64,000 nt of DNA from an uncultured Candidatus Saccharibacteria bacterium (GTDB taxonomy: Bacteria; Patescibacteriota; Minisyncoccia; UBA6257; UBA9933), in NCBI GenBank assembly GCA_964453135.1, contig CAYVOL010000001.1:24895-88894 (forward strand), read 5' to 3'. Below, piece after piece: positions 1-62,501 of the stretch. The first letter of the stretch is position 1, and every line of letters begins with the position of its first letter. The notes beneath the pieces were generated by a model, which made no database searches, was not told where the DNA came from, and was given only the letters and a program-made list of their open reading frames with translations. The translations under genes were made by a program, and so were the position numbers.

Positions 1-207
1 AGGCGGAGAAGAATCTATTGTGTCATTTTGAACCGCCAACTGGCTCCGCCAACTGGCGGAGAAGAATCCCGTATTTATGCAAGTTTGATCATGTGAGATC
101 CTTCGTCCCCCGCCGTGGCGGGGGACGAAGGATGACAATAAAAACAGAATAACAATAAAAAACAACGATGAAAAGTGTAAACAACACTATGAAACCCTAC
201 AAATTAA
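1..207 (-). mobile_element. MITE-like element, copy 1 (minus orientation, truncated by window start): GC-hairpin core modules plus the terminal inverted-repeat motif at 163-207
   Basis: Reverse complement of tgtcatcc..tcccccgccacggcggggga..gaaggatctc at 93-135. ccgccaactggcNccgccaactggcgg module at 1-70. TIR motif caacgatgaaaagtgtaaacaacactatgaaaccctacaaatta at 163-207 matches the copies at 11780-11822 and 35122-35166. Confidence 0.7.
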
Positions 208-2685: not shown

Positions 2686-2803
2686 AACGCGCTTTTCACC
2701 ATGGTTATTCTGAATTTTATTGTTTGTCATTCTGAGTCCGCCAGTTGGCGGACGAAGGATCTCGCAAGATTCTTCTCCGCCGGCTGGCGGATTCAGAATG
2801 ACA
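2686..2803 (+). mobile_element. MITE-like element, copy 2 (partial left TIR plus core)
   Basis: aacgcgcttttcaccatggttattctgaattttattgtttgtcattctgagtccgccagttggcggacgaaggatctcgcaagattcttctccgccggctggcggattcagaatgaca. Confidence 0.7.
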
Positions 2804-4520: not shown

Positions 4521-4755
4521 TGTCATCCTGAGTCCCCCGCCACGGCGGGGGACGAAGGATCTCGCTAAGATTCTTCACTACGTTCAGAATGACAGCGTAA
4601 GTCATCCTGAGCGAAGGCGAAGGATCTAACGAAATTTTTCTCCGCCAGTTGGCGTCCGCCGGCTGGCGGATCAGAATGACAGCTTTGGATTTCCGCTTTC
4701 GCGGGAATGACAGGCGCTAAGATTCTTCTCCGCCGGCTGGCGGATCAGAATGACA
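4521..4755 (+). repeat. Three tandem MITE core units (each ends in cagaatgaca)
   Basis: Unit boundaries near 4596 and 4682. Hairpins tcccccgccacggcggggga, gcgaaggcgaagg, ccgccagttggcgtccgccggctggcgg. Not CRISPR: the spacers are not unique and the units differ in length. Confidence 0.7.
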
Positions 4756-4896: not shown

Positions 4897-6780
4897 TTAT
4901 TGATAGCAATAATGATAGTAAAGTCGGCTACAGTTGGAATCTACTGGCTCAAAACTGGTTAATTGAACGTCTGTAAAACCAGCTGGACAGGAATACCCTC
5001 CGGTCCAAGGATTGGTTACTGCCGGTTGACACCCGCTACCGGAGATAGTCGTATACATTCCTCCAAATCTACCCGTGCTCGCCCAACGCGCGGGACCACC
5101 AGCTTGCGGAGAACCCAACCACACATCTCCACTCCAAACGGAAATATTTCCACCACTAACCGACAGTTTATTGTCCGGCGCTGTTGTTCCGATGCCGACG
5201 TACCCGTTACTTTGGTTAATATAATCGAGGCTATTTGCGAAATAAAGATCTCCTGTTGAATTGCTAATCATTAACGGTCGCAAGGTATTCCAACTCCCAT
5301 ATTGATTGCCGGAATTGGTAAGTAAAGGCATATATGTATTGACGCCATCATTTCTAATAAAAGCTCCGTAATTTCCAGATATAGCTCTAAATTGACCTGA
5401 GCCACCCCCTAAAGTACTAATGAATTCTGTTGCTGTTCTAGTAGAGCCATTGACATCTAATGTATAGCCTGGTGATGCCGTCCCGATACCCACGTAAGTT
5501 CCATTATCATATATCTGCGAATTGGTAATACTAGGCACAGTTCCCCATTTTGTAAGATAGTTTGTGGTGCCGGAAGTGTAGGTGACCGTACCCGCACCCA
5601 AACTGGTGCAGCTTCCAGCAGAAGTGACAATGCCGCCGGATATTGTAAGACCGCTGGGAGTGGTGCCTGCTGAACAGGTTAATGAATTGACGCCAGCAGT
5701 GCCGCCGCGCCGGTAATAATTGGTTGCGCCGACATTGATGTCTCCGGAAACATCAAGCTTGTAAACAGGAGACATTCCCACGCCGACATTGCCGGAAGAA
5801 TTCCAGACTCCGCTGCCCGGGAAATTAATTGTCCCGCTGAAAGTAGGGCTGGAACTAAAAACCAAAGAACCGCTGCCGGTTTCGTCGGTAATTATTGACG
5901 CTAAGTTGGCGGAAGTATCGGTGTTGAAATAAGTGGAAGACAAGCCGGCGATTTTTCCAGCGGAGGTTATTAAGTTGACATTGCCGGTGCCGAATTGGGC
6001 GGCGCCCTGGACATCAAGAAGCGCGCCGGGAGTGGAAGTTCCGACGCCGAGATATTTGTTGGTATTGTTCCAGAAAAGATTGGCGTCTCCGCCTAAAGTG
6101 CCGGCATTGTTGAATTGCACCTGGCCGGTGGAGCCGCCGGCGAATCCTGTGGGCCAGGAAGCAATGCAGGAACCGTTAAGGCAGAACTGGGTGGAGCTGG
6201 TGTTACCCGAAACTTCCAAGGGCTGGCTGGGATTAGAGGTGCCTACTCCGAAATTACCGGAGTTGTAATAAAGTTTAGAGCCGGAGGAAAAAAGGCAGGC
6301 GCTGTTGACGCATAGCCCGGTGTCGGAACGGACATAGCCGCCCAAGACGTCAAGCTTGACCCCTGGGCTGGCGGTGCCAACGCCGACATTGCCGCTCATA
6401 AGAGCAGTGGGGTTACCTTGTTTACCAATTTGTAATACTACGTTATTTCCACTATCAAAAAATTGATATTGAGTTGCATAACCGCCAGTACCGCCGGGAT
6501 TAAAACCCATCCAAGAATTAACTGAATCACCCGAAATATAAGAGGAATTCCCTAACCCAAATTTTAACGCTGATGTAACTCTCGCATTGCCATTAACATC
6601 TAATATATATTGCGGCGTCGTTGTCCCAATGCCCACATTGCCGCCGGAATAATATAAGACACCCCCCCCTGCGCCGGGAGCAGAGGAAGGAGAAGTCCAG
6701 CCGAAAACTACGGTGGCAAAAGAAACTGCTAAAATGAGGCAAGAGAATATGAAAAGGATTTTAGGAAGGGAGCGGGACAT
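4897..6780 (-). CDS. Secreted Gly-rich beta-helical repeat protein (tail-fibre-like repeats), Cys-rich C-terminus
   Basis: Signal/TM at the N-terminus. About 10 degenerate repeats of the form GNVGIGTTxPxxxLDVxG. C-terminal CxxGxxxC..C..YCY. Confidence 0.6.
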   Translation of the reverse strand: MSRSLPKILFIFSCLILAVSFATVVFGWTSPSSAPGAGGGVLYYSGGNVGIGTTTPQYILDVNGNARVTSALKFGLGNSSYISGDSVNSWMGFNPGGTGGYATQYQFFDSGNNVVLQIGKQGNPTALMSGNVGVGTASPGVKLDVLGGYVRSDTGLCVNSACLFSSGSKLYYNSGNFGVGTSNPSQPLEVSGNTSSTQFCLNGSCIASWPTGFAGGSTGQVQFNNAGTLGGDANLFWNNTNKYLGVGTSTPGALLDVQGAAQFGTGNVNLITSAGKIAGLSSTYFNTDTSANLASIITDETGSGSLVFSSSPTFSGTINFPGSGVWNSSGNVGVGMSPVYKLDVSGDINVGATNYYRRGGTAGVNSLTCSAGTTPSGLTISGGIVTSAGSCTSLGAGTVTYTSGTTNYLTKWGTVPSITNSQIYDNGTYVGIGTASPGYTLDVNGSTRTATEFISTLGGGSGQFRAISGNYGAFIRNDGVNTYMPLLTNSGNQYGSWNTLRPLMISNSTGDLYFANSLDYINQSNGYVGIGTTAPDNKLSVSGGNISVWSGDVWLGSPQAGGPARWASTGRFGGMYTTISGSGCQPAVTNPWTGGYSCPAGFTDVQLTSFEPVDSNCSRLYYHYCYQ

Positions 6781-6821
6781 TTTTTATTTATCGTTGTTTT
6801 TATTGTTATCCTGTTTTAATA

Positions 6822-6968
6822 GTCATCCTGAAAGTGTTTTTGTCATCCTGAGTCCCCCGCCACGGCGGGGGACGAAGGATCTCGCAAGATTCTTCACTGC
6901 GTTCAGAATGACGGGGTGGATTCTTCTCCGCCAGCTGGCGTCCGCCAGCTGGCGGATTCATAATGACA
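6822..6968 (+). mobile_element. MITE-like element, copy 4 (core, partial duplicated 5-prime end)
   Basis: gtcatcctgaaagtg partial, then tgtcatcctgagtcccccgccacggcgggggacgaaggatctcgcaagattcttcactgcgttcagaatgac...ccgccagctggcgtccgccagctggcggattcataatgaca. Confidence 0.7.
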
Positions 6969-7169: not shown

Positions 7170-8252
7170 TTAGTTTGCCACCAACGGGGCTGGACCCATC
7201 GGCGGCGAGAATAAAGGTCCGTTTGGAGGCAAAGGAGCCGGTCCGCCTCCTGGAAGTCCAGGGGAACCCGGAGGACCAATGGGACCTTGAGCGCCAACGG
7301 GGCCTTGTGAACCGACTGGGCCTTGCGGGCCTGCCGGACCTTGAGCGCCAGTTGCGCCCCCTGGCCCCTGAGGACCTGTCGAGCCCTGGGCTCCTTGAGA
7401 TCCTTGCGGACCTCTAAATCCTCGCGGACCCTGAACGCCTTGCTGGCCTTGGGGACCTTGCGGACCTACTGGGCCGCGAGGGTGATGAATGATATGGATG
7501 GAGGATGCTGCCGCTCCTCCGTAAATCGCGGCCTTATCAATGTCGCTCGCCGCCAAAAATGGGACGCCGCACTCCTCCGGAAGGAAGGCTTTTTCAAAAA
7601 TTCCTCCCAGAAGAGAACCACCGACCGCGGCTAACGCACCGATTGGATGGCTCATCGCCATGGCTCCGCCAAATCCGGCAAGCCCTCCCAAAGTGCCGCC
7701 CCATCCAGAGGGAGTACATCTTTTTTGCCAGGCATCTCTTCGCTCCAGGGCGTAATTCACCGCTGCCACCACATCTGCCTGAGTAATCTGCGGCTGTGGC
7801 GGAGGATACTGGTAAATAGCTTGAGGCGGTGGCGACGCTGGCATCGGCTGATACGACGCCGCTGCCGGCTGTTGAACAACTGCTTCTTGCGGCCGCGGAC
7901 GCGTTGCTGAAACCGCCCTGTCCTCAATGAAATTCAAAAACACTCGATTGAGAATAGGGTTGCCGCAGGCACATACTTTGTCCGCCAGCCAACGCTCTCC
8001 GTCTTTACGCATAGAGACTTCTGTTCCGACTGGCAACCAGCCAGTGGAAATTTTTCCGCTGGCGCCAATTATTTTCACCTCGGCATCCTCGTCCAACTTC
8101 ATGGTCGGGAGGTTTTCTTTCTTACAAAGGTCCGGCGCCACCGGGTCGGCGCCGATGTTAATATATTTTTTCCCGGTTTCCGCGGCAACGGGCGAAATCC
8201 CCGTCGCGGCTAATGCAACTATGGCAAGAGCAATGACACCCATTCTTCTCAT
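7170..8252 (-). CDS. Secreted collagen-like triple-helix repeat protein (GC-rich, SD-preceded)
   Basis: Signal peptide [25 protein letters not shown]-terminal run of G-X-Y triplets ([22 protein letters not shown]...). Strong SD aaggaggagggg upstream. Local GC is well above the neighbouring genes. Confidence 0.65.
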
Positions 8253-9203: not shown

Positions 9204-9803
9204 TTGTTTCTTGTTAAATATAGAGAAAGAGATTGGACATTCGCGAACGAAAAACAAAAAGCGGAACAATCACGGACAAGGAGATGGCCAATGGAGATGG
9301 GCGATGCGTCAGCAATGCCACCAGGAAGTGAAAAAGAGCTGTGCTGCAATCCCGATGTAGCGATCGTCCGAGAGCGTCTATCAGCCCTGCTGAAGTACAA
9401 ATCTAAGACACCAATACTATTCTCTCTGCAACCAGTGGGCAACAAATTCCGATTTGCCATAAGATCACTGCGCGCCAACAACCTCGGTATCCCACCGAGA
9501 ATAGTGGCAAGAAGACTTTGCGACATCTCTGTCCAAGTGGCCAAGCATTTACTTCCCGAATACCATCACGAGGACCCCGAATTCCTCGTTGTTCGCAGAA
9601 ATTTAATGGCAATGCTGAGCAAAAAGATTCAGGAACCGGTAATAACGCTCGGCAGGATAGAAAATAAGTTCCTGCTGTTCATACACAACGTGAACCTGGA
9701 AATTCCGTCGGGAATAGTAGTAGCGGATAGTCTTTGGGGCATTTACATTCAGGCGGCCCAACATCTGTTTCCCGATGAAGGCCTCCAACCTGCCCTCGCC
9801 TAA
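9204..9803 (+). CDS. ORFan hypothetical protein (TTG start, SD ggaggtg, own terminator)
   Basis: GC-richer codon usage than its neighbours. Candidate promoter TTGACA-17-TAACAT at about 9102-9130. Terminator at 9838-9877. Confidence 0.4.
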   Translation: MFLVKYRERDWTFANEKQKAEQSRTRRWPMEMGDASAMPPGSEKELCCNPDVAIVRERLSALLKYKSKTPILFSLQPVGNKFRFAIRSLRANNLGIPPRIVARRLCDISVQVAKHLLPEYHHEDPEFLVVRRNLMAMLSKKIQEPVITLGRIENKFLLFIHNVNLEIPSGIVVADSLWGIYIQAAQHLFPDEGLQPALA

Positions 9804-9837
9804 CCAGCGCGCCAACTATATTTCTTTACCCCCCTTC

Positions 9838-9877
9838 CAAGCCCCTCTCCACAACAACGGAGAGGGGCTTTGTTTTT
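9838..9877 (+). terminator. Rho-independent terminator
   Basis: aagcccctctccacaacaacggagaggggctttgtttttt. Confidence 0.6.
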
Positions 9878-9884
9878 TATTGAA

Positions 9885-10337
9885 TTATAATTCTTGCCGC
9901 TTTAAGAAAATCGCCAAAGCGTTAAACAGCAAAAAGCCGAAAAGCAAATTATAAAAAATTTCTTTGGCCAACAAAGGAGTTAAGATCAGGGAAGGAAAAG
10001 TAAAAAGGTAGAGAGAAAAAGTGAAAAGAGAAATTAAAAATAAGCCGCTGACAGCGGGATGCCAGGGAAGATATTTTTTGACAACCACAGCGGCAAGCGC
10101 TAACAAAGAGAAAATAAGCAGTTCTTTTTCAGCAGAGGGGGAAAATTTAATAAGGAAAGCAATTAAAGAGACAAAAAACAAACTTTCCCAAAAATCGGCG
10201 GTAAAAAAAAGAATGGAAACCAAAGCAACCAAAGGCAGATTTGGCTTCGATCCCCAAAACGGAGGAATTATAAATTGCGCTAGCGAGAAGGCAACCGACA
10301 CGAATAATAAAATAATAAAACGATAATAATTTCTCAT
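9885..10337 (-). CDS. Small polytopic membrane protein (4-5 TM), unknown function, coupled to the dnaJ stop
   Basis: Hydrophobic throughout. Overlaps the dnaJ stop by 4 nt. Confidence 0.4.
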
Positions 10338-11455
10338 TCCATTTCTTCTCCCAGATCTTTAAACAATTGTTTGGCTTTATGGCTGATTTTTTTGGGAGTT
10401 TTCACGCTAACAATGACAATTAAATCTCCCCGGCCCGAACGGTTAAAACGCGGCATTCCTTCGCCGTGAATTTTCAGCGGCTCGCCCAAAGTAAAATCAG
10501 GGGGCAGGGAAATTTTTAGAACATTTCCGGAAAGATGCGGAATTTCCAGTTTATGAGATTCATCGGACAGAAGACGCAACAGTTCCGACAAGGGAATATT
10601 TTTACGGATGATTAAATCGTCTCCCTGGCGGACAAATTCTTTGTGCGGCTTAACGGTTATTCTTACGAAGAGGTCGCCCGCGCCGGTGCCGCGCTCGCCT
10701 GCTTCTCCTTTTTCTTTTACCTGAATAATCTGTCCGGCGGCAATGCCCGGAATGATTTTTATTTTGACAACAACTTCGGCCATCATTCTTCCTTTCCCCT
10801 GGCAGGCATCGCAATTTTTCTTGGCGATTTTGCCAGAGCCATGGCAATTGGCGCATTCTCTTACTTCGGAGAAAGAACCGAAAAAAGTGCTTCGTTTTTC
10901 CCGAATCTCTCCTTTACCTCCGCAAACCTCGCACTGATGAAGCCCGGCAGAGGAATCATAACCAAGACCTTTGCACTTTTCGCATTTTACGTAAGTCCGA
11001 TAGTGCAATTCTTTCTCCGCGCCCTTAAAAGCTTCTTCTAAAGTAATTTCTAAAATTGCCTCAATGTCAGCTCCGGCGCGGCGGGTTTTTTCTCGTGTCC
11101 GCGCAGAGCCCGCGCCGCCCATTCCGCGGAAAAACATTTCTATCACATCGTCCAAATTGCCGAAGTTAACATTTTCCTCGCCGCCGAGATCGCCAAAATC
11201 AAACCCAAAGCCGAAAGGACTCCCGCCCGCGCCGAAACCGCCGGCGCCTTGGTCAAATGTCCGGCCGTATTTATCGTATTGCGCTCTTTTGTTTTTATCC
11301 GACAGCACCTGATAGGCTTCGTTGATTTCTTTGAATTTTTTTTCATCGCCTCCGGATTTGTCCGGATGATATTTGTGCGCCAGCTTACGAAAAGCTTTTT
11401 TAATTTCTTCTTCCGAAGCGTTCTTCGGAACGCCCAGAATTTCGTAATAATTCAT
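10334..11455 (-). CDS. dnaJ: Chaperone DnaJ
   Basis: J-domain with HPD (YHPDK), G/F region, four CxxCxGxG zinc-finger repeats. Confidence 0.9.
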
Positions 11456-11605
11456 CTTTTAATAAACTAGAATGCCAAAACTCAACCCAAATTATCATTT
11501 TGCATTTTGAGGCCTGAAATTTCAATTTATATTATTATATATAAGATTTCATGGCCTTGTTTATGCTTTGCATCGTTGTTTTTTATTATTATTCTGCTTT
11601 ATTGC

Positions 11606-11822
11606 TATCCTGAACGTCTTTGTCATCTTGAGTTTTTTGTTTGTCATCCTGAGTCCCGCTTAGCGGGACGAAGGATCTCGTAAGATTCTTCTCCGCCAGT
11701 TGGCGGAGCCGGTTGGCGAATCAGAATGACAGAGGGTCGGAACTCATAATGACAGGGGGCTATCGGGAACAAAAATAGTCAATGTTTTGAACGTAAACAA
11801 CGCTATGAAATCTTACATATTA
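11606..11822 (+). mobile_element. MITE-like element, copy 5 (near full length: core plus right TIR)
   Basis: Core tgtcatcctgagtcccgcttagcgggacgaaggatctcgtaagattcttctccgccagttggcggagccggttggcgaatcagaatgaca. Right TIR caatgttttgaacgtaaacaacgctatgaaatcttacatatta at 11780-11822. Confidence 0.75.
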
Positions 11823-11826
11823 TATC

Positions 11827-12858
11827 TTACACAATCACTTTTTCTTTAGGCCTGTCCACTATCTGAATATGGGAAAAATTGCTCATCAAAAGAATCTGAT
11901 AAACGATAAAAGCAAGGAAGGCTATGACTCCGCGGAGAATAAAAGCCATACTTTCAATGCTTAAAAATATGATTGCTCCGAAAACGGCGTAAATAATATC
12001 TTTAACCGGCTGGGAAAGCCCGAAAAATTTTCCCTTCGCCGCTTCGTAGATAAAAGACGGCAGGGTTAATTTGGGATTAACCGGCGCTCCGACCAAATCG
12101 GATATTTTTTTATACAATTCCTTGCTGCTTTCTTTAATAAGCGACTCCTTGACAGCCGGCGGCAGGGCTTTGCTGTTCGCCTGGCTATTGATAGTGTTTT
12201 CAGCCGAATGGCGCGCCCATTCTTCCAGGGTTACAGACGAATTGAAATCAGGCACCCACTGCCCGATGATGCCGGAAGCGGAAGAAAACGCACTTTCAAA
12301 GAATATCTGGGGAATGAAAAAATCTGAATTTTTTTGCCGGTACGACAAAGGAACAGCCGCGGCAATCACCAAAGAAACAGCCAGAATTCCTTTAGGCAAA
12401 ACCAGACGGCTGATTTGATTAAAATTAATCCTCAGCGAATTGCTAATCCACTTGGCGCCGCTTCGATTTCCGTAAACAAGCACGAAAAAAACGATAAAAA
12501 TAAAAGCGGCGGCTGGCCAATAAAAGTTGCCGACAAACAGCGGAGCGGTCATCGCCAAAGCCTGAGCGAAATTAATCAAGCCGACTTCCGTTTCATCTTC
12601 AATAAACAAGCTTTCCAATAAATACAAAACAAGAAATAAAACGGCAAAGACGGCGCTGTACACGAAAGCCGTTAAATCCCGGCTGTTTACGGCGACCTCT
12701 AAATACCAGCTAAACAAAAAAGCGAAGAGAGCGGAAACAAGGCAAAAAATTCCCAGCTTAAGAGAAAAAATCGTGTTGGTAGTATTGTAATGGGAAACGT
12801 TCTTGGGGACAGTCAGCGTTTCAGACTTATTCAGTATGAGGCGGGGCGGTATTTCCAT
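11827..12858 (-). CDS. Polytopic membrane protein of unknown function, inserted between dnaK and dnaJ
   Basis: The ORF-track start at 12942 overlaps the dnaK 3-prime end by 115 nt. Met at 12858 (MEIPPRL) reduces the overlap to 32 nt. Multiple TM helices. Confidence 0.45.
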
Positions 12859-14665
12859 CGTTACTTTGATTATACATCGCTTGCCCGATTTTTTGAAGTT
12901 CTTGGGAAAGCTCTTCCATTTTTGACTTAATGGCTTCCGCATCGCCGCTTTCTTTAAGGGACTTCAATTCGCTTATTTTTGCTTCAATACTGCTTTTAAC
13001 ATCGCCAGCCACTTTGTCTCCGGCTTCTCTTAATGATTTCTCCGCTAGATAAATCATCTGCTCGGCCTGATTTTTAAGTTCCACCAATTCTTTTTTCTTT
13101 TTGTCTTCTTCGGCATGAAGTCCGGCTTCGGTTTTTAATTTTTCAATTTCTTCCTTGGAGAGCTGGGTGGAAGCTTCAATTTTAACGGACTGCGTTTTGC
13201 CAGAGGCCTTATCTTTAGCGGAAACATTCAATATGCCGTTGGCGTCAATGTCAAAAGTCACCTCAATCTGCGGAATCCCCCGAGGAGAAGGAGGAACGCC
13301 GTCCAAGATAAATCTTCCCAAAGTTTTATTGTCGCTCGCCATGGCGCGTTCTCCCTGCAAGATATGAATTTCCACAGAAGTCTGGTTGTCCGCGGCCGTG
13401 GAAAACGTCTGCGATTTCTGCGTGGGGATAGTCGTGTTTTTTTCTATCAGCGGAGTAAACACTCCTCCCAATGTTTCAATGCCCAGAGAAAGCGGAATAA
13501 CATCCAAAAGCAAAACGTCTTTCACATCCCCTTGGAAAATTCCGGCTTGCACCGCCGCGCCCACAGCCACCACTTCATCGGGATTGATTCCCCGGTGCGG
13601 CTCTTTGCCGAACAAATTTTTTACCGCTTCCTGAATTTTCGGCATCCTGGTTTGCCCTCCCACTAAAATGATTTCATTGATATCAGAAAGCTGGAAGCCG
13701 GCTTCCTTGACGATTTTTTCCGTAATTTCAACGGAACGCTTAATAAATCCTTCGGTTAATTCCTCTAATTTAGCGCGGGTTAATTTTATCAGAAAATGTT
13801 TGGGACCGGCCGCGTCGGAAGTAATATAGGGAAGATTGATTTCCGTTTCAAAAGCAGTGGAAAGCTCGTGCTTGGCGCGCTCCGCCGCTTCTTTCAGGCG
13901 CTGCAAGGCCAGAGGGTCGCCGGACAAATTAACGCCTTCCTGTTTTTTGTATTCGGCGACAAGATATTCAATCAAATTTTTATCCAAATCATCTCCGCCC
14001 AAATGCGTGTCGCCGCCCGTGGCTTTCACTTCCACCACGTCATCGCCGATTTCCAAAACAGAAACGTCAAAAGTGCCTCCGCCAAAGTCATAAACGACAA
14101 TCTTTTCGTTTTTCTGCCTATTGAGCCCGTAAGCCAAAGCCGCGGCTGTCGGTTCATTAATAATTCTTCTCACTTTAAATCCGGCGATTTCTCCGGCATT
14201 TTTCGTAGCTTGCCTTTGGGAATCGTCAAAATAAGCGGGCACGGTGATAACCGCTTCTTCAATTTTTTCTCCCAGTTTCGCTTCGGCGTCGGTTTTTAAT
14301 TTCGCCAAAATCATAGCCGAAATTTCTTCCGGCTTGTACCAGCGGTCTCCCATTTTTACTTCCACTCCGCCCGAGGAAGAACTATTGATATCGTAAGGAA
14401 GCCACGCCTTGTCGCGCTGAACTTCCGGGTCATCAAACTTTCTGCCAATCAAACGTTTAACGGAAAAAATAGTGTTTTTCGGGTTGACCACGGACTGCCT
14501 TTTTGCCAGCATACCCGCCAGCCTTTCCCCCGCTTTGCTGACAGCCACAATGGAAGGGGTGGTGCGCGCTCCTTCGTGATTTTCTAAAATTTTCGGCTCT
14601 CCGCCTTCCACGACAGCCATGGCGGAGTTGGTAGTGCCTAAATCAATGCCAATTATCTTTGCCAT
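12827..14665 (-). CDS. dnaK: Chaperone DnaK (Hsp70)
   Basis: [28 protein letters not shown] signatures. Confidence 0.95.
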
Positions 14666-26663: not shown

Positions 26664-27337
26664 CCCCTTTCCACTTCTATCTTATTGGCTTTCTTTACCA
26701 CTTTCTCCCCGTACCTCCGCAAATGCCTTTTCCAGTGCGAGCCGGCGTAATACTTAGCCGCCGCGATCTTTTCAGCGCGAAACGAACCAGTGTCCGCTCC
26801 GGCGTTTCTAAGATAAAGCGCGGTAGCCAGGAAGGCGTCTCTGTGTCTCCATGGAGAGGGATGTTTGCCTGTAAGAAAAGCGATCTGGCCGCTGTATTCC
26901 GCCCAAGTTGACGGGATAAACTGCGCCGGCCCCATTGCCCCTCCATAAGTTCCGTCGCGGGCAATGGGACAAGAAACCGGAATCGTATCTGGATTCAAAC
27001 CCGATTCCCTGACAATTTCCAGAAATACAGGAATATCGCGCGTCGGGTGCATAGCAGTTTTATAATTGCACTTACCCATGCTTTTCCCCAACGTTGACTC
27101 GCGGTCCAAAACCGCCAGAATCAAGGCGGCGCGAACTCCGGTTTTCGATTCGGCAAACTTGGCGAATTTATAAGCGTCTTCAAACTTAAGCTCTCCGCCG
27201 CCGATAAATTCAAAAGTCTTATCCACCCTTTCCTTTTCTACCCAAATCATAGTCGCCATAAAAGCGACAATAATCACAATTAAAGCCGCCAAAGCGGAAG
27301 CTACCTTTGGGAATATCTTCTTGGCAATTGTTGTCAA
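26660..27337 (-). CDS. Membrane-anchored MltB-like lytic transglycosylase (SLT_2-type domain)
   Basis: [14 protein letters not shown], the family-3 lytic transglycosylase motif. SD aggagg plus TTG start. Confidence 0.6.
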
Positions 27338-27586
27338 TGTAATTTCCTCCTAATTCTGATAAAAGTTGTTCTTTTTGTTTTTAGAGATGTCTATTCTTAT
27401 TCTATTGTGAAGGTACTTATTCAGGCCGAAAAGTCAGCGGCCCGAATATTTTAAGCAGCCGCCCCATGATAAATCGCAGGGAATTTGCTTCCTCGTATTT
27501 ATCCATAATTTGATTAAATTGTCAAATTAATGTAAAATTATAATTTAAATATTTGGATTATGGTGTGCCTTTCAAAACTACTGCGA

Positions 27587-29005
27587 CTAAGCGTTTAAGG
27601 TATTTATATCCTGCTGGAATTCGTTGGCTTTCGTGACGGCTTTTTCTCCGTAGCTCCACAGATAATTTCTCCAGCGGGCGCCGGCGTAATATTTAGCCGC
27701 GGCAATTCTCTCGGCGTTAAACGAGCCCGCATCCGCTCCGGCATTTTTCAGAAAAAGAGCGGTGGCCAAAAAAGCATCGATATTTTTCCAAGGGGACGGA
27801 GGATTGTCGCCGGTAAAAGAAGCTATTTGGTCGCTGTATTTTGTCCAGGTGGAAGGAAGAAACTGCGCCGGACCCATTGCGCCGCCGTAAGCGCCGTCGC
27901 GAGAAATGGGACAAGAAACCATGGTCGTGTCCGGATTCAAATCAAGCGCTTTGGTGATTGCCAAAAAAATGGGAATGTCGCGCGTCGGATGCATGGCGTC
28001 TTTATAATTACATTTCCCCACATTTTTCCCCATAGCGGACTCGCGGTCCAACACCGCCAAAACCAGGGCGGCGCGCACGCCGGTTTTTGATTCGGCGAAC
28101 TTGGCAAATTTATACGCGTCTTCAAATTTCAGTTCTCCGCCGCCGATAAGTTCAAAAATCCTGCTTCTTATTTGTGCAGCAGTTTTTTGTGTTTCCGCCA
28201 GAATTTTTTTATACTCCGATTCTTTCCCTTTGGTAACTGTCAGCAGATTATTTTTTTCTTCTTTTGTTTTTTGGATAGAATTTTTTTGCTCTTCCTGGTA
28301 GCTTTTCAAAACCAGGGCGTCGTTTTTTTTCAAAGCCAGCTGTTCTTTCTGGTCCATCAATTCGCCGCGCAAACTGTTTAATTCCTGGACCGCCGCCCCT
28401 AATCTTTCCTGAGTGCTGTTAAGATGGCTTATTTCGTTAAAAGCGTCGGAGATTTTATTATTGGCCAAAATAACCGTGGCGATGTTCTCATTGTTTTTCT
28501 GATACATTTCCTGAAGAAGGAGAGAAATTATTTTTTTCTTGACGGTCATCTTGTCCTCAGTAGAGGTAATTTGGGATTGGGTCTGAACAAGGTCTTTATC
28601 CAGTTTTCGCAAGGTTAAGGTGACGGCTTTTATCTGCAGGCTTAATTTGGCAATTTTGTCGTTTAATTTTTTAATTTCCGACTGCAGGCTGTTGCCTTGT
28701 TTTTTGTATTCTCCGATTTTCTTTTCGTATTCATTCATCTGGCTTTCTAGCTGAGCCAGTTGAGCTTCCAGGGCTTTTCTTTCTTCGGAATTATTGGCTG
28801 ATTGAGCAGCCATAACTCCTCCGCTCGTGGGGGCCAGCACAGAATTAAGCACGAAAGAAGCAATAAAGAACAAAACAAAAAAAACGCTTAAGATGTTTTT
28901 AAGCGGCACTCGGATTACTTTTTGATAATTAAGATTTATCTGGCGAGGGTGATTATAATAGGAACTTCCTTCTTTTTTGATATCCCGAAGAATTTTTTGT
29001 CTCAT
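27587..29005 (-). CDS. TM anchor, ~250-aa coiled coil and C-terminal MltB-like lytic transglycosylase domain (paralog of 26660..27337)
   Basis: The C-terminal 190 aa align to the upstream paralog at about 70-75% aa identity ([14 protein letters not shown]). The N-terminal region is heptad-rich (LQSEIKKLNDKIAKLSLQIKAVTLTLRKLDKDL...). Confidence 0.65.
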   Translation of the reverse strand: MRQKILRDIKKEGSSYYNHPRQINLNYQKVIRVPLKNILSVFFVLFFIASFVLNSVLAPTSGGVMAAQSANNSEERKALEAQLAQLESQMNEYEKKIGEYKKQGNSLQSEIKKLNDKIAKLSLQIKAVTLTLRKLDKDLVQTQSQITSTEDKMTVKKKIISLLLQEMYQKNNENIATVILANNKISDAFNEISHLNSTQERLGAAVQELNSLRGELMDQKEQLALKKNDALVLKSYQEEQKNSIQKTKEEKNNLLTVTKGKESEYKKILAETQKTAAQIRSRIFELIGGGELKFEDAYKFAKFAESKTGVRAALVLAVLDRESAMGKNVGKCNYKDAMHPTRDIPIFLAITKALDLNPDTTMVSCPISRDGAYGGAMGPAQFLPSTWTKYSDQIASFTGDNPPSPWKNIDAFLATALFLKNAGADAGSFNAERIAAAKYYAGARWRNYLWSYGEKAVTKANEFQQDINTLNA

Positions 29006-35121: not shown

Positions 35122-35320
35122 TTAATTTGTAAGATTTCATAGCGTTGTTTACGCTTTTCATCATTGTTTTTTTATGGTCATCCTGAGTCCCGCTTAGCGG
35201 GACGAAAGATCTCGTTCCGAAGCAACAGACTTTCCGCTTGAACCAAAGAGATTCTTCGCTTCGCTCAGAATGACATGAAGGATTCTTTGTCCCCCGCCGT
35301 GGCGGGGGACAAAGAATGAC
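35122..35320 (+). mobile_element. MITE-like element, copy 6 (left TIR plus core), immediately upstream of the ODP-like gene start
   Basis: Left TIR ttaatttgtaagatttcatagcgttgtttacgcttttcatcattg. Core ggtcatcctgagtcccgcttagcgggacgaaagatctcg...ttcgctcagaatgaca...cccccgccgtggcgggggacaaagaatgaca. Confidence 0.75.
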
Positions 35321-35343
35321 AGGGGGGGGGGATAAAACGAGAT

Positions 35344-46165: not shown

Positions 46166-47050
46166 ATGGATATTCAAGAAATTAAATTCAACAACCCCAA
46201 ATTTCCCCGTTTGCTGAAAACAATTTCCCGCCCGCCGAAGCACATTTTCTTGCGTGGAGAAATTCCTTCCGAGGGCATTTTCGCGGCAATAGTAGGAACA
46301 CGCAAAGCCACTGCGTCGGGAAAACAATTGGCCAAGGAATGGGCGGAAAAACTGGCGGAGATGGGAATTATCGTTGTCAGCGGATTGGCGCTGGGAATTG
46401 ACTCCGCGGCTCATGAAGGCGCGATAGCGACTGGCGGAAAAACTATCGCTGTTTTAGCCAACGGCGCGGACAAAATTTATCCCGCGCAAAATGAAAATCT
46501 GGCGAAAAAAATTCTGGAACTAGGCGGGGCGATTATTTCCGAATACGAACCGAAAACTCCCGCTCTCCCCCATCAATTTTTAGAACGCAATCGTTTAATA
46601 AGCGGATTAAGCATAGCCACTATTGTCATTGAGGCGCCCGAGCGCTCCGGAGCAATAGCTACCGCCCGATTAGCGGCGGAACAAGGACGGGAAGTATTTG
46701 TTGTTCCCGGGCCGGTAGAACATCCCAATTATAAAGGGGCGCACCAGTTAATCAGAGACGGGGCGAGATTGATAACGTCAATAGAAGATATTCTAGAAGA
46801 CCTTGGTTTAAATGATCTCGGGCGGCAAAAATTAAATTTAAATAATGCCGCGAAACTTTCTGAAGATGAATATCTAAATGCCAGCCAGCTAAAAATTATT
46901 GAGACCATCCGCCAAGCGGGAAAACCTCTTGCCATTGACGAAATAATTAAAATGACTAAACTGGACGCGTCCGTTGCCAATCAAGCCGTTGCTTTTCTGA
47001 CCATCGGAGAAATAATAGCGGAAACAGAACAAGGATACGGGTTAAGGTAA
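46166..47050 (+). CDS. dprA: DNA-processing protein DprA (Smf)
   Basis: AIVGTRKATASG and SGLALGIDSAAHEGA Rossmann-like DprA core. Confidence 0.85.
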   Translation: MDIQEIKFNNPKFPRLLKTISRPPKHIFLRGEIPSEGIFAAIVGTRKATASGKQLAKEWAEKLAEMGIIVVSGLALGIDSAAHEGAIATGGKTIAVLANGADKIYPAQNENLAKKILELGGAIISEYEPKTPALPHQFLERNRLISGLSIATIVIEAPERSGAIATARLAAEQGREVFVVPGPVEHPNYKGAHQLIRDGARLITSIEDILEDLGLNDLGRQKLNLNNAAKLSEDEYLNASQLKIIETIRQAGKPLAIDEIIKMTKLDASVANQAVAFLTIGEIIAETEQGYGLR

Positions 47051-47063
47051 ATTTTTAATTTCT

Positions 47064-49493
47064 ATGAATCTAATTATCGTTGAGTCTCCGGCAAAAACAA
47101 AAACCATAGCAAAGTACCTCAAGGGCGATTACGTTGTGAAAGCCAGCGTGGGCCATATTCGCGACTTGCCGAAAAACAACAAGAAAGCCATTGACATTGC
47201 GGGCGGTTTCACGCCGCATTATGAAATCATCCCAGGAAAAGAAAAAGTCATCGCCGAACTGAAAGAAACAGCCGGAAAAACAAAAGAAATTTTATTGGCC
47301 ACTGACCCGGACAGAGAAGGAGAAGCCATTGCCTGGCACATCATTGAGGCATTAAGCCTCGGAAATTCAAGATTCAAGATTAAAAATTCAAAACTGCCGA
47401 GCATTAAGCGGATTGTTTTTAATGAAATCACGGAATCCGCTGTCAAAGAAGCGTTAAAACATCCGCGAGACATTGATGTGAACTTGGTAAAAGCGCAGGA
47501 AGCGCGCCGCGTTCTTGACCGATTAGTGGGATACGATTTAAGCGGATTGATCTGGAAAAAAGTGCGCTACGGATTGTCGGCCGGCCGGGTGCAATCTCCG
47601 GCTTTGCGCATTTTAATGGAGAAAGAACGAGAAATTCGCGCTTTTAAGCCGGAAAATTACTGGGTGATAACCGGCGAGTTTGAAACCAAAAATAACGATA
47701 AAATAATTCTTATTTGCGAAGAAGAGCCGCGGGATAAAAAAGAGATGGAAAGAATAGTGGAAACGGCGAAGAAAAATAAGTGGCAAATAATCAATGCGAC
47801 GCAAACGGAGGCAAAACGTTCTCCCCGTCCTCCATTTATCACTTCCACGCTCCAGCAGGCGGCCAGCTCCCGCTTGGGAATGGCGCCCAGCCGCACAATG
47901 TCTTTGGCTCAAAAACTTTACGAGCAGGGATTCATCACTTATATGAGAACCGACAGCGTCAATATCAGCAAGGAAATTCTGCCGCAGATTTACGGAGTAA
48001 TAGAAAAACGCTTCGGCAAGAAATATCTCGCTCCGCGCGCTTACGCGGCGAAAAGCAAGACCGCCCAGGAAGCGCACGAGGCAATCAGGCCCAGCCGCCC
48101 GGATTTTATTCCGCAAAATTTAGGCGGCCAAGCAAAAATAACCGACAAACAGCAATCATCTCTTTATCAATTAATCTGGGAAAGAACTGTTGCTTCGCAA
48201 ATGGCTGACGCGAAAATTTCACGGACAAAAATCTCCGCCAATATTTATGATCAGCATGATATCTCTGGTTATCATGATATTTCTGATCACCATGATGTTT
48301 CTAATCACCATGATATTTCTGGTCATCATAATGTTTCGGATCATCCTAATATTTCTGGTCATCCTGAGCGAAGCGAAGGATCTCAAAAAGATTCTTCGAC
48401 TGCTTCGCTCCATCAGAATGACAATAATAAAATCCCCAACTTTTCCACCACTGGCAGCATAGTCATTTTTGACGGCTGGCTGGCCGCCGACCCTCTCAGC
48501 CGCGGAGAAAATGTTGAACTGCCCGCGTTAAAAATTGGGGAACCGTTAAAACTTCTTAACATCAGCGATGAAGAAAAAACCACTGAGCCGCCTCCCCGCT
48601 ACACCGAAGCCGGACTGATTAAAGAATTGGAAAAGCGGGAAATCGGCCGTCCCAGCACATACGCGACTATCATAAAAACCTTATATGACCGCGGGTACAC
48701 AATTAAGGAAGGCAAGGCGCTGAAGCCGACGGACACCGGCGAAGTAGTCAGTAATTTTTTGGAAAAAAATTTTTCCGCTTATATCAGCGATTCCTTCACC
48801 GCGGAAATGGAAAATGAATTAGACGAAATCGCCGGCGGCAAAAGGCGCTACGAAAAAATGTTGGGCGATTTTTATAAGCCGTTCTCGCAGGCGGTGAAAG
48901 ACAAAGAAAAAACCGCGGAAAAATTAACCAACCTCGGCGAAGCGGACAAAGAACACAAATGTCCGGTTTGCGAAGGGCCGATGGTGATAAAATTATCGCG
49001 CAGCGGAAAATTTTTAAGCTGCGCTAAATTCCCCGAATGCCAGGGAGCACGAAAAATCGACGGCGCCGCAATGGAAGGCCCGAAAGAAACCGGCGAAAAA
49101 TGTCCGCAATGTAAAGAGGGAGATTTAATTGAGCGGGAAGGCCGCTTTGGCAAATTCATCGCCTGCTCCAACTATCCCAAATGTAAATTTATAAAAACCA
49201 GCGCGGAAGAAGAGGCGAAGAAAAAAACCGGTGTCGCCTGCCCGGAGTGCCAAAAAGGATTGTCCGCCGAAGCCTCGGCAAAGACAGGCGAGATTATGGA
49301 GCGCCGCGGACGCTTCGGCTTGTTTTATTCCTGCTCCAATTATCCCAAATGCAAATTTATTATGAAATCGCGGCCAACAGGAAACATTTGTAAATTATGC
49401 AAAGCGCTGATGATGGAGGGAACTAAAACAATTCCCGAACGCTGCAGTGATAAAAATTGCCCCAATTACAATCCGTCAAAACAAAAGAATTAA
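47064..49493 (+). CDS. topA: DNA topoisomerase I with C-terminal zinc ribbons and an in-frame repeat insertion
   Basis: Toprim start MNLIIVESPAKTKTIAKYL...HIRDLP. Several C4 zinc-ribbon repeats (CPVCEG...C..C; CPQCKEG; CPECQKG). Confidence 0.9.
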   Translation: MNLIIVESPAKTKTIAKYLKGDYVVKASVGHIRDLPKNNKKAIDIAGGFTPHYEIIPGKEKVIAELKETAGKTKEILLATDPDREGEAIAWHIIEALSLGNSRFKIKNSKLPSIKRIVFNEITESAVKEALKHPRDIDVNLVKAQEARRVLDRLVGYDLSGLIWKKVRYGLSAGRVQSPALRILMEKEREIRAFKPENYWVITGEFETKNNDKIILICEEEPRDKKEMERIVETAKKNKWQIINATQTEAKRSPRPPFITSTLQQAASSRLGMAPSRTMSLAQKLYEQGFITYMRTDSVNISKEILPQIYGVIEKRFGKKYLAPRAYAAKSKTAQEAHEAIRPSRPDFIPQNLGGQAKITDKQQSSLYQLIWERTVASQMADAKISRTKISANIYDQHDISGYHDISDHHDVSNHHDISGHHNVSDHPNISGHPERSEGSQKDSSTASLHQNDNNKIPNFSTTGSIVIFDGWLAADPLSRGENVELPALKIGEPLKLLNISDEEKTTEPPPRYTEAGLIKELEKREIGRPSTYATIIKTLYDRGYTIKEGKALKPTDTGEVVSNFLEKNFSAYISDSFTAEMENELDEIAGGKRRYEKMLGDFYKPFSQAVKDKEKTAEKLTNLGEADKEHKCPVCEGPMVIKLSRSGKFLSCAKFPECQGARKIDGAAMEGPKETGEKCPQCKEGDLIEREGRFGKFIACSNYPKCKFIKTSAEEEAKKKTGVACPECQKGLSAEASAKTGEIMERRGRFGLFYSCSNYPKCKFIMKSRPTGNICKLCKALMMEGTKTIPERCSDKNCPNYNPSKQKN
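48247..48423 (+). repeat. In-frame insertion in topA: 18-bp tandem repeats encoding x-H-H-D-I-S hexapeptides, followed by a 66-bp MITE core (gtcatcctgagcgaagcgaaggatctc...cagaatgaca)
   Basis: Six 18-nt units (ggttatcatgatatttct / gatcaccatgatgtttct / ...). The last unit merges into ggtcatcctgag, the MITE 5-prime end. The MITE core at 48358-48423 is 66 bp (22 codons). Confidence 0.8.
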
Positions 49494-49502
49494 TAAAAAA
49501 TT

Positions 49503-49564
49503 TGTCGTTCCCCGCCCCGCCGTGGCGGCGGGGCGGGGCGAGGAATCTCGCGGGATTGCTTTTC
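49503..49564 (+). repeat. MITE-family left half (module 1) at the left border of the ORFan island
   Basis: tgtcgttccccgccccgccgtggcggcggggcggggcgaggaatctcgcgggattgcttttcc, compared with tgtcatcctgag-hairpin-gaaggatctcgcaagattcttc. Confidence 0.55.
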
Positions 49565-49578
49565 CAATAAAACAAAGT

Positions 49579-49607
49579 TTGACTAAAATAGCATTTGCTG
49601 GTATTAT
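49579..49607 (+). promoter_or_regulatory. Consensus sigma70-type promoter (TTGACT, 17 nt, TATTAT) for the island operon
   Basis: ttgactaaaatagcatttgctggtattat. The 5-prime UTR ends in SD aaaggagg before ATG 49688. Confidence 0.55.
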
Positions 49608-49687
49608 ATAAAAAGTAAATAAACAGATTTTTATTGAGGCGTAAACACGCGGCACAATGATAGCGACTTCACAAAAGGAGGAACGAA

Positions 49688-50146
49688 ATGCTGGTGATCT
49701 CGGCTTTAAACACCATAAGACTGCTAATGGAAGAGGTGAAGGAAACCGAAATCCTGATAGAGCCGGAGGAAGAGGTGCGGAAAGGCGAGAGAGTCATAGG
49801 AGAGATGGCGGGAGAACTGAGAAAAATATACACCCTAGCGCAAGTTTACAGGCAAGCGGCAGTGAACTTGTCCCATTCTGTTTTAAATGGCGGCGCGACG
49901 GGCAAAGAATCAGAGAAGGGCAGGACGGCCTTCATAAAGATGAAGCGGTGCGAATATACCCATACCTATCTCATGGATACCCTGTGGCATTCTCTGTTCT
50001 TGTACTACGATGAAAAACTTTCCCATCTTTGCGCCGACACGGTTGCCGTAAGAGCCGGCTGGAAAATCGTCGTGTTCAATACTGACGACGCTGTTAAAGA
50101 ATGCGGCGAATGCCAATGCGGAACCGCAATGATTAATCCGAACTGA
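49688..50146 (+). CDS. Island ORFan 1, Cys-rich C-terminus (CGECQC)
   Basis: SD aaaggagg 8 nt before the ATG. 152 aa, no TM, GC-richer codons. Confidence 0.5.
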   Translation: MLVISALNTIRLLMEEVKETEILIEPEEEVRKGERVIGEMAGELRKIYTLAQVYRQAAVNLSHSVLNGGATGKESEKGRTAFIKMKRCEYTHTYLMDTLWHSLFLYYDEKLSHLCADTVAVRAGWKIVVFNTDDAVKECGECQCGTAMINPN

Positions 50147-50162
50147 AAAGAAAGGAGGCGCG

Positions 50163-50435
50163 ATGAACGTTTTGCTGGAATGTTTTAACGCCGCGTACAT
50201 TGAGGCACGGCGGCAATTTCAGAAGCAGTATCCGAAATACAACGCGGGCGCCGTGCTTTCTGCGTTTCAGAGATGCCCTCGCGCCCGCGGCGACCCCCGC
50301 GACATATCGGGAGCATACAAGCACGTTTTCGGCGGCGCGGAAACCGACGAAAAAGCACAGTGTTCCCAGTGCGATGGGTTTTTGTGGCGATACGAACGGG
50401 CTATCAGAAATTATTCCCGCGTTATGCGGGATTAA
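50163..50435 (+). CDS. Island ORFan 2 (90 aa, CSQC motif)
   Basis: SD gaaaggagg. Follows ORFan 1 after 16 nt. Confidence 0.45.
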   Translation: MNVLLECFNAAYIEARRQFQKQYPKYNAGAVLSAFQRCPRARGDPRDISGAYKHVFGGAETDEKAQCSQCDGFLWRYERAIRNYSRVMRD

Positions 50436-50462
50436 AAAGAAAGGAGACGCCTTATGTATTTA

Positions 50463-50498
50463 GGGCTGTCCCGCTGTTGAGCGGGACAGCCCTTTTTT
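50463..50498 (+). terminator. Rho-independent terminator
   Basis: gggctgtcccgctgttgagcgggacagcccttttttatt. Confidence 0.7.
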
Positions 50499-50650
50499 AT
50501 TGGCTTTCCGAACAACGCAATTTCTATTTGACAAAATTAAATAAAGTTGTATAATTATGAAATAAAAAGTGGCTCTTTCCCAATAAAATAACGGGATAAC
50601 GGGGTTTTTACCCCTAACGCGGCACTGCCGCAAAGAGAGGAGAAAGCGCG

Positions 50651-52994: not shown

Positions 52995-53036
52995 ATACCA
53001 AAACTCCCCCCGCCATGGCGGGGGGAGTTTTGGTAT
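52995..53036. terminator. Bidirectional hairpin terminator
   Basis: ataccaaaactccccccgccatggcggggggagttttggtat. Confidence 0.7.
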
Positions 53037-53601: not shown

Positions 53602-53673
53602 CATATTTTCCAGTATCAAACCAAACATTCAATGCGTCAAGAACAAATCTTCGGCTTTGGCGCTGTTTGGAAA

Positions 53674-53781
53674 GTCATTCTGAGTCCCCTTGCCCCGCCA
53701 AGGCGGGGGGCGAAGAATCCCGTATTGACCGCGGAAACTTTCAAGATGCTTCGTTCCGCCACGGCGGGGCTCAGCATGACT
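53674..53781 (+). mobile_element. MITE-like element, copy 9 (core)
   Basis: gtcattctgagtccccttgccccgccaaggcggggggcgaagaatcccg...gatgcttcgttccgccacggcggggctcagcatgac. Confidence 0.65.
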
Positions 53782-54198: not shown

Positions 54199-54205
54199 AC
54201 TAAAA

Positions 54206-54236
54206 TCAAAAACCCCCGCTAAGCGGGGGTTTTTGA
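54206..54236. terminator. Bidirectional hairpin terminator
   Basis: caaaaacccccgctaagcgggggtttttg. Confidence 0.7.
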
Positions 54237-54243
54237 TTGGAAC

Positions 54244-60495: not shown

Positions 60496-60544
60496 TTTAA
60501 TTTATTTTACCCTTCTTCGCGCGGCAAATAAAGCCCTTTGGACA

Positions 60545-60584
60545 GAATATAAAACCCCCCGCCATGGCGGGGGGTTTTATATTC
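60545..60584. terminator. Hairpin terminator
   Basis: gaatataaaaccccccgccatggcggggggttttatattc. Confidence 0.65.
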
Positions 60585-60605
60585 TGTAAATTCTCTTAAA
60601 GCAAA

Positions 60606-62300: not shown

Positions 62301-62439
62301 CTCTCCCCTCCATGATTTCTCCGTGATTTCGGAGATTAATATTTACGGCTTATCTTCGCCGCCAAAACGGAGAAGCCAAGCCGCCCGCACTTTTTAAAAT
62401 TTACCTAATATCTACAATGCTGTCAATAGTTATCCGCAA

Positions 62440-62471
62440 AGAAAACTCCCCCGCTAAGCGGGGGAGTTTTC
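62440..62471. terminator. Hairpin terminator (same gctaagc loop as 54206-54236)
   Basis: gaaaactcccccgctaagcgggggagttttc. Confidence 0.65.
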
Positions 62472-62501
62472 TTGTTCAATCTTTTGACTTCTGTGGCTAA
62501 C

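Follow-up and report, generated by a model that had tools for sequence, protein, structure and literature searches.

When the reading frame of a conserved enzyme runs through what looks like a mobile repeat, it has to be asked where the added sequence came from, whether the protein tolerates it and why it stands at that particular site. This question is raised by topA, which encodes a type IA DNA topoisomerase I (TopA), in a 64,000-nt stretch of an uncultured Candidatus Saccharibacteria genome (contig CAYVOL010000001.1, positions 24,895 to 88,894, assembly GCA_964453135.1), hereafter called the window. Herein, six 18-bp tandem units followed by a palindromic element are read as protein within topA, and the element belongs to a family that is dispersed through the window. 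The explanation to which we give a probability of roughly 80% is that of a tolerated in-frame palindromic insertion, similar to the Rickettsia palindromic elements (RPEs), with a tandem array derived from its junction.

The topA reading frame passes through an array and a palindromic element

The initial annotation had proposed that the topA frame is unbroken through the repeat core, and this holds: the open reading frame (ORF) at 47064-49493 contains no stop and encodes 809 aa, passing through both the array (48241-48367) and the 65-66-nt palindromic element (48357-48423). The product carries the Toprim acidic motif, the Topoisom_bac core, the catalytic-tyrosine motif and the C-terminal four-cysteine zinc ribbons of a type IA topoisomerase, with Pfam matches to Toprim (1.9e-22), Topoisom_bac (3.3e-116) and three Zn_ribbon_Top1 stretches (3.3e-33). 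Its best match among solved structures is E. coli TopA (4rul, 1.2e-141), and in the alignment TDPDREGE pairs with the E. coli acidic motif TDLDREGE, and GFITYMRTDS with the catalytic-tyrosine motif GYITYMRTDS. From the open frame and the conservation of these two motifs, it is reasonable to infer that the enzyme with its insertion keeps its function. The homologs measure 720-772 aa, the top non-self match being 70% identical, and those that are named come mostly from Parcubacteria, Wolfebacteria and Paceibacterota, all of them Patescibacteria. The gene directly upstream is dprA (46166-47050).

By Tandem Repeats Finder (TRF), the array has a period of 18, with 7.1 copies and 77% matches, and a second repeat search gave six in-register copies. 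In codon register, the units read DQHDIS (48249), GYHDIS (48267), DHHDVS (48285), NHHDIS (48303), GHHNVS (48321) and DHPNIS (48339). The six 18-bp repeats initially described upstream of the element are therefore present as full units, joined by a seventh (GHPERS, 48357) that is already the 5' end of the element and represents the real flank/element junction. The element itself translates as GHPERSEGSQKDSSTASLHQNDN over 48357-48425; the in-frame reading first given for it was correct, but the codon phase starts at 48357 instead of 48358 and the peptide has 23 residues instead of 22. Altogether, the extra segment of 62 aa contains 11 His and many Asp. A 25-mer of the element, GTCATCCTGAGCGAAGCGAAGGATC (48358-48382), has a second copy with two mismatches at 35250-35274 on the minus strand, where 0 are expected by chance, and the fold of the element, a long and imperfectly paired hairpin, has a DNA minimum free energy (MFE) of -16.5 kcal/mol (z = -4.8; 0 of 200 shuffles as good). 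An Rfam scan of the whole window returned three tRNAs only, with no match at the topA element, and no Pfam domain covers the inserted segment. A terminator or promoter role for the element was considered and rejected, no terminator-like site being present there.

It might be argued that the segment is a chimera of repeat-driven assembly, or that this topA is a decaying copy. The assembly is indeed of the metagenome type, from a repeat-rich genome, and the exact TopA protein occurs on one contig only. Against this stand a frame that is unbroken for 809 codons, the presence of every domain and catalytic motif, and an added length that is a multiple of three. Furthermore, the array units differ by about 23%, so that they can be uniquely assembled with ease, and analogous in-frame palindromes are found at the same loop in many independent assemblies (see below). 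An artefact or a pseudogene is thus very improbable.

The element belongs to a family dispersed through the window

The identification of the segment as a copy of a dispersed repeat is borne out, as it has both termini and the central stem in common with at least nine other copies in the window. The family is bounded by 11-nt terminal inverted repeats (TGTCATYCTGAG / CTCAGAATGACA). With up to one mismatch allowed, 29 occurrences of the family terminus GTCATYCTGA were counted, where 4.05 are expected and 100 shuffles gave 10 at most. All of the other copies are intergenic, between long ORFs, the topA copy being the sole intragenic one of about 10. The copies, of which there are at least 10 in 64 kb, measure 65-109 nt and are non-coding apart from that in topA (Table 1). 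GTCATYCTGA(G) is found at both ends of the eight complete copies and forms the outer stem in every fold; this outer stem (GTCATYCTGAG / CTCAGAATGAC) and the central stem are common to all copies, and the inner GC-rich hairpin modules differ between them. All copies fold far better than shuffles (z -3.1 to -11). The topA copy is the minimal form, with arms matching 4601-4627 and 35248-35274. The genes beside the copies are of the ordinary housekeeping type, their products being RNase Y, DnaJ, a sigma-70 factor, SpoU, a metallo-beta-lactamase-fold protein and hemerythrin.

The initial annotation had called the element a miniature inverted-repeat transposable element (MITE), a label that stands only in part. 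Terminal inverted repeats, small size, multiple copies and an occupied versus an empty site fit it. However, the flanks of the eight complete copies show no direct repeat that would be a target-site duplication, and the 64-kb window yielded no parent insertion sequence or autonomous partner that shares the ends of the family. In addition, no transposase lies beside any copy (10 neighbouring ORFs, with no further search for repetitive extragenic palindrome (REP)-associated tyrosine transposases, RAYTs). Because target-site duplications and an autonomous partner were not found, the family is described here as MITE-like or REP-like, and not as a proven MITE.

Two ORFs flanked by repeat clusters, at 4897-6780 and 7170-8252 (both on the minus strand), look phage- or surface-related. 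The 627-aa product of the former has a long-tail-fibre Gp34 trimerisation domain (3.4e-17), and the 360-aa product of the latter has collagen triple-helix repeats, which correspond to TRF periods of 18 and 9 at 7276-7467. Moreover, perfect 17-23-bp palindromes composed of an A/T-run, CCCCCCGCC / GGCGGGGGG and a second A/T-run lie between convergent or tandem genes at 2244-2283, 52995-53036, 54204-54238, 60542-60587 and 62439-62473, and look like bidirectional terminators. They are a class apart from the TGTCAT family, yet their GC core recurs as an inner module of that family.

Origin of the 18-bp array

In the TRF register, the 18-bp unit is ATATTTCTGGTCATCCTG, which consists of the upstream flank AATATT (the conserved N-I codons), a few following bases and the element terminus GTCATCCTG. 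Reiteration of the terminus is also seen outside topA, where one or two degenerate reiterated termini with a period of 17-23 bp precede the intergenic copies at 2704/2726, 6822/6842, 11622/11643 and about 35157/35177. Specifically, GTTATTCTGA lies 22 nt upstream of 2726; GTCATCCTGA lies 20 nt upstream of 6842, with TGTTATCCTG further upstream; GTCATCTTGA lies 21 nt upstream of 11643, with GCTATCCTGA further upstream; and TTCATCATTG lies 20 nt upstream of 35177. On the minus strand, GTCATTATGA is found at 11744-11753, just beyond the right end at 11730. Since reiterated termini also accompany intergenic copies, terminal reiteration is a trait of the family, which in topA reached six extra units, their period being divisible by three. 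The early suggestion that the array was seeded at the element terminus is supported by the make-up of the unit and by these shorter reiterations; slippage during replication, or the chemistry by which the element inserts, would then have produced it. Where the array units differ, most changes fall at first codon positions and are non-synonymous. A gradual decay of the units toward the element was considered and rejected, as by eye the mismatches to GGTCATCCTG are inconsistent with it (3, 2, 3, 4, 2, 2, 0).

The site is empty in the nearest relative

Between the conserved A-N-I and I-P-N-F codons, the window has 62 aa versus 4-29 aa in the 119 other homologs listed, none of which contains the inserted segment (0 of 119). 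The nearest ortholog, P0002 (L161/L162), is 70% identical and retains the dprA-topA synteny; its site is empty, reading AATATT-ATTCAGGAATTAGAAACG-ATTCCG and coding the 6-aa loop IQELET. These comparisons agree with the initial proposal that the insertion of about 60 aa is lineage-specific. The empty site is that of a relative at 70% protein identity, so that the occupied and empty sites do not represent a recent polymorphism. Furthermore, no element termini were found in the 17.6 kb of L161/L162, and both family termini within 150 nt were found in 0 of 162 loci (L001-L162). The only part of the family seen in relatives is the inner module TCCGCCAGCTGGCGGA, which recurs in the TopA loop of L163. 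Comparison of the 62-aa insert with 5.8 billion proteins, made to find other proteins in which the element is read in frame, gave no candidate with enough words in common and was uninformative. In a non-exhaustive literature search, no paper was found on the repeat family or on palindromic insertions in Patescibacteria topA, and searching by the string GTCATCCTGAG and its variants returned primers and vector sequences only.

The insertion falls in a variable loop of domain D2

By sequence alignment, residues 392 and 462 of the window protein correspond to residues 417 and 426 of E. coli TopA, so that the insertion appears to take the place of the beta-hairpin turn in domain D2 (E. coli residues 418-425). 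The charged loop R442KGDEDR of E. coli has been assigned to domain D2 in the full-length structure paper (PMC4678816). As its equivalent in the window protein, at about residues 472-487, lies just downstream, the insertion would likewise lie in D2 but be distinct from the charged loop. An AlphaFold2 model from 25 sequences, poor overall (mean predicted local distance difference test (pLDDT) 57.6, predicted template modelling score 0.30), places strands at 383-394 and 460-466 around a coil with a pLDDT of about 26. In addition, the D2 loop is hypervariable among orthologs. The mapping, the low-confidence coil between strands and this variability all point, as first suggested, to a loop. The roughly 57 extra residues, rich in His, Asp and Ser, are predicted to be disordered and to sit on an exposed turn distant from the catalytic residues.

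Palindromes and tandem repeats recur at the D2 loop in Patescibacteria

Palindromes and tandem repeats are recurrent at this loop in Patescibacteria. For the comparison, 100 Patescibacteria loops were parsed, comprising 17 from a genome-collection scan, whose listed matches were mostly from other phyla, 74 from a metagenome scan, 8 added by hand and that of the window itself. The metagenome loci L081-L160 were ranked by tblastn against an insertion-bearing query, so that long loops are over-sampled. It was found that 44 of the 100 loops are at least 8 aa long, and that 10 of these 44 expanded loops contain uninterrupted perfect stems of 12-22 bp (L149, L104, L093, L096, L136, L090, L094, L138, L009 and L115). 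In about ten others, the perfect stems are shorter or the hairpins are long and composite (e.g. L003, L085 and L084). In the metagenome ortholog L084 (4355-4516), the D2 loop contains 54 aa of in-frame composite palindrome, built of inner hairpins and an outer stem; with an MFE of -76.8 kcal/mol for 174 nt, this is the sole insertion seen that rivals that of the window in size. Tandem repeats fill the loops of L001 (ACGCGGAAC(A), four copies), L083 (CAACCGA runs), L095, L089, L100 and L165 (7-bp period). At least 10 sequence groups, unrelated to one another, can be distinguished among the palindromes, and several loops belong to dispersed families: the hairpin of L009 is found again at L091:11682-11704, the loop of L117 matches five other loci and that of L110 matches L147.

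Such recurrence raises the question of whether the process is site-specific, with the 5' edge of the D2 loop DNA acting as a phylum-wide hot spot at which many palindrome families integrate or grow by template switching or duplication. The number of unrelated palindromes in expanded loops favors this, and so does their distribution. In 80 Patescibacteria TopA genes, perfect stems of at least 10 bp occur in 7 of 16 insertions (at least 8 aa) at the D2 loop versus 2 of 152 at other indel-tolerant sites (Fisher p = 5.6e-7), and in expansions of this site from 12 genomes outside Patescibacteria, the best stems do not exceed 7 bp. Furthermore, 9-10 of the 11 strongest cases have the left edge of the hairpin at -4 to +3 nt from the A-N-I/V codon, and in L104, L136 and L090, whose flanks are 72-75% identical, three unrelated palindromes stand at the same nucleotide. 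Direct duplication of a self-palindromic unit is seen in L003, L093, L136 and L096. In L093 and L136 (flanks 71-73% identical), related units show concerted complementary changes in both copies. Template-switch, or quasi-palindrome, mutagenesis can create and homogenise hairpin arms (PMC8794818, PMC8604942), and would fit both these concerted changes and the growth of palindromes in ortholog loops.

Several results speak against a hot spot. A conserved basal hairpin acting as a seed was rejected, as 55 short-loop orthologs fold no better there than the rest of the gene (mean z = +0.34). The basal loop has only 12-18 nt, which leaves little room for differences in position, and Lys-rich linkers make up the other variable TopA sites, where selection on composition is probable and could filter out hairpins. 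The sampling of L081-L160 favors long loops, and in the unbiased genome set strong hairpins were found in 2 of 17 loops among the matches listed. In addition, stems of 14-19 bp that are perfect or nearly so occur well inside other long ORFs, at L091 11677-11709, L123 1546-1576 and 1909-1949 (dprA) and L001 3058-3089, so that in-frame hairpins are not limited to topA; the L091 stem belongs to the ACTTGGAAG family, as do the TopA loop hairpins of L009, L096 and L104. Finally, unlike a template-switch product, the window element clearly matches dispersed copies in its genome and so was not made locally. A site-specific process is therefore considered possible but doubtful. A generalisation in which a general source combined with tolerance makes all insertions in these TopA genes hairpins is not supported, given the 2 of 152 elsewhere.

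A selected function has also to be weighed. The His/Asp-rich array could be a metal- or DNA-binding appendage, or the hairpin could affect topA expression through mRNA structure or a supercoiling-responsive cruciform. The composition of the segment, the strong fold of the element and the recurrence of palindromes in a topoisomerase gene are compatible with such a gain, and the arms of L093 and L136 are perfectly paired though their flanks have diverged. These arms, however, would equally fit gene conversion, template switching or independent insertions from the repeat family of each genome. The inserted peptides are unrelated across lineages, most orthologs are without any insertion, and the segment is covered by no Pfam domain or Rfam family. 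The first-position changes among the array units give no sign of purifying selection, and a cruciform that blocked topA transcription at high supercoiling would, by reasoning, oppose homeostasis. A functional gain is unlikely on these grounds.

A second variable loop of TopA lies in the Toprim domain (47352-47399, residues about 97-112) and reads GNSRFKIKNSKLPS. It is coded by a 7-bp tandem repeat, AAATTCA x4.4 (TRF 47363-47393), with CTCGG/CCGAG on either side, and measures 11-33 aa in orthologs, of which L143 and L152 have hairpins of 14-15 bp there. Peptides with a 7-bp period similar to that of the Toprim loop (QNSRFKIQDSG) occupy the D2 loop in other orthologs, e.g. P0007/L165. In L165, a Wolfebacteria relative, the neighbour of topA (9371-14326) encodes a 1651-aa GyrA/topoisomerase IV subunit A that contains an intein with a LAGLIDADG endonuclease, an example from the same group of selfish DNA of another kind within a topoisomerase gene.

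A probable tolerated insertion and the evidence against it

In the explanation preferred here, a 65-66-nt member of the dispersed composite palindromic family would have entered the DNA coding for the tip of the TopA D2 beta-hairpin, after which the junction between the flank and the 5' terminus would have been reiterated six times with a period of 18 bp. Versions that kept the frame open would persist and others would be lost, as topA is presumably indispensable. At least 8 aa long in 44 of 100 Patescibacteria loops and holding 54 aa of composite palindrome in L084, the site is moreover a permissive one. Most likely, the inserted segment is no adaptation but a passenger that is tolerated, and its presence may be neutral.

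The following points count against this explanation. The concentration of hairpins at the D2 loop compared with other variable TopA sites is not obviously predicted by random insertion combined with tolerance. The lack of target-site duplications and of nearby transposases leaves a transposition route unproven. The right arm of the topA copy has two 4-nt bulges (ACTG and CATC) relative to 35248-35274, so that it is not a fresh copy, and the array units are only 77% alike, which indicates that the array is old and that slippage is perhaps no longer active. Moreover, the structural model is poor.

Relation to known palindromic and mobile repeats

In-frame insertion into unrelated genes is known for the Rickettsia palindromic elements, and the added peptide has been judged compatible with the fold, according to the passages on these elements in PMC10969869, which cites Ogata et al. 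2000. Compared with what is described there, the window element is alike in kind, though not by family membership: it is a short palindromic repeat, dispersed in a small genome and placed in frame in a conserved protein gene. It differs from the RPEs of those passages in its Patescibacteria host, in its length (about 65 nt versus about 150 bp), in that one of about 10 window copies is intragenic, in the 18-bp terminal tandem reiteration translated as His-rich hexapeptides, and in that the same protein loop holds unrelated palindromes in many other lineages. By this analogy, the event would be of the RPE kind, here in a Patescibacteria genome.

Similarities to the REPs and bacterial interspersed mosaic elements (PMC3733652) are found in the imperfect palindromes, the variable inner hairpins, the intergenic mosaics (4521-4755 and 6841-6968) and the missing target-site duplications. 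Unlike these, the window family is bounded by an 11-nt terminal inverted repeat and measures 65-109 nt, and its topA copy is intragenic and translated. Intragenic bacterial MITEs such as ERIC, BOX and Correia (PMC10969869, PMC2229807) are likewise small, non-coding and multicopy, with terminal inverted repeats and an occasional in-frame ORF fusion, but the window family differs from them in that 0 of 8 complete copies have a visible target-site duplication and no parent insertion sequence sharing its ends was found in the window.

Features of the window

The coordinates of topA, the inserted segment and the family copies are collected in Table 1. Two further observations concern other parts of the window. 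Downstream of topA, about 1.1 kb (49494-50650) contains only short ORFs that overlap in several frames, with no match at Rfam gathering scores. Three direct repeats in collinear order at 26685-28160 (183, 141 and 204 nt; 73-82% identical), spaced 939-942 bp apart, suggest two tandem paralogous genes.

Table 1. Position of topA, its inserted segment and the members of the palindromic repeat family in the window
Feature	Position	Strand	Basis
topA, type IA DNA topoisomerase I, 809 aa, intact ORF	47064-49493	+	Pfam and structure match
Extra coding segment, 62 aa, between conserved A-N-I and I-P-N-F codons	48246-48431	+	Homolog alignment, E. coli mapping, model
Six 18-bp tandem units coding (G/D/N)-(H/Y/Q)-(H/P)-(D/N)-(I/V)-S	48249-48356	+	Repeat finding, codon register
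Palindromic repeat element, read in frame as GHPERSEGSQKDSSTASLHQND	48357-48423	+	Family matches, fold
Left terminal inverted repeat GTCATCCTGAG	48358-48368	+	Terminus scan
Central stem GAAGGATC / GATTCTTC, loop TCAAAAA, common to family	48375-48397	+	Repeats, fold
Right terminal inverted repeat TCAGAATGAC	48413-48422	+	Terminus match on minus strand
Complete intergenic copy, near-perfect 79-nt hairpin; degenerate reiterated terminus 2704-2713	2725-2803	+	MFE -36.2, z = -11
Intergenic cluster: complete copies 4521-4594 and 4600-4681, partial copy 4703-4755	4521-4755	+	Repeats, termini, fold
Complete intergenic copy 6841-6913 and adjacent modules (6914-6968); reiterated terminus 6822, more degenerate one near 6802 (17-20 bp period)	6795-6968	+	TRF 6795-6830 period 17, termini, fold
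Complete intergenic copy 11642-11731; reiterated termini on both sides, 11622 (+) and 11744 (-)	11622-11753	+	Termini, fold
Complete intergenic copy 35176-35275, right arm closest to topA copy; adjacent module 35281-35321	35176-35321	+	25-mer match, repeats, fold
Complete intergenic copy, 109 nt	53673-53781	+	Termini, fold
Intergenic family modules at window edge	1-140	-	Repeats, termini

Implications

If the D2 loop were a true hot spot, a so far unknown mechanism of integration, hairpin generation or targeting would be implied, or else a selected role of the hairpin at the nucleic-acid level in a topoisomerase gene; the window element with its terminal array would then be the largest case seen. 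As a tolerated insertion, the locus offers a clean and checkable case outside Rickettsia of selfish palindromic DNA translated within an essential, universally conserved enzyme, in which the donor family, the empty site and the junction-derived array are all visible in the sequence. In Patescibacteria more widely, palindromes and tandem repeats make up much of the variation in length at one TopA loop. This bears on how the proteins of very small genomes acquire new segments, on whether repeat activity or adaptation lies behind insertions in marker proteins, and on how such insertions are to be handled in alignments and phylogenies.

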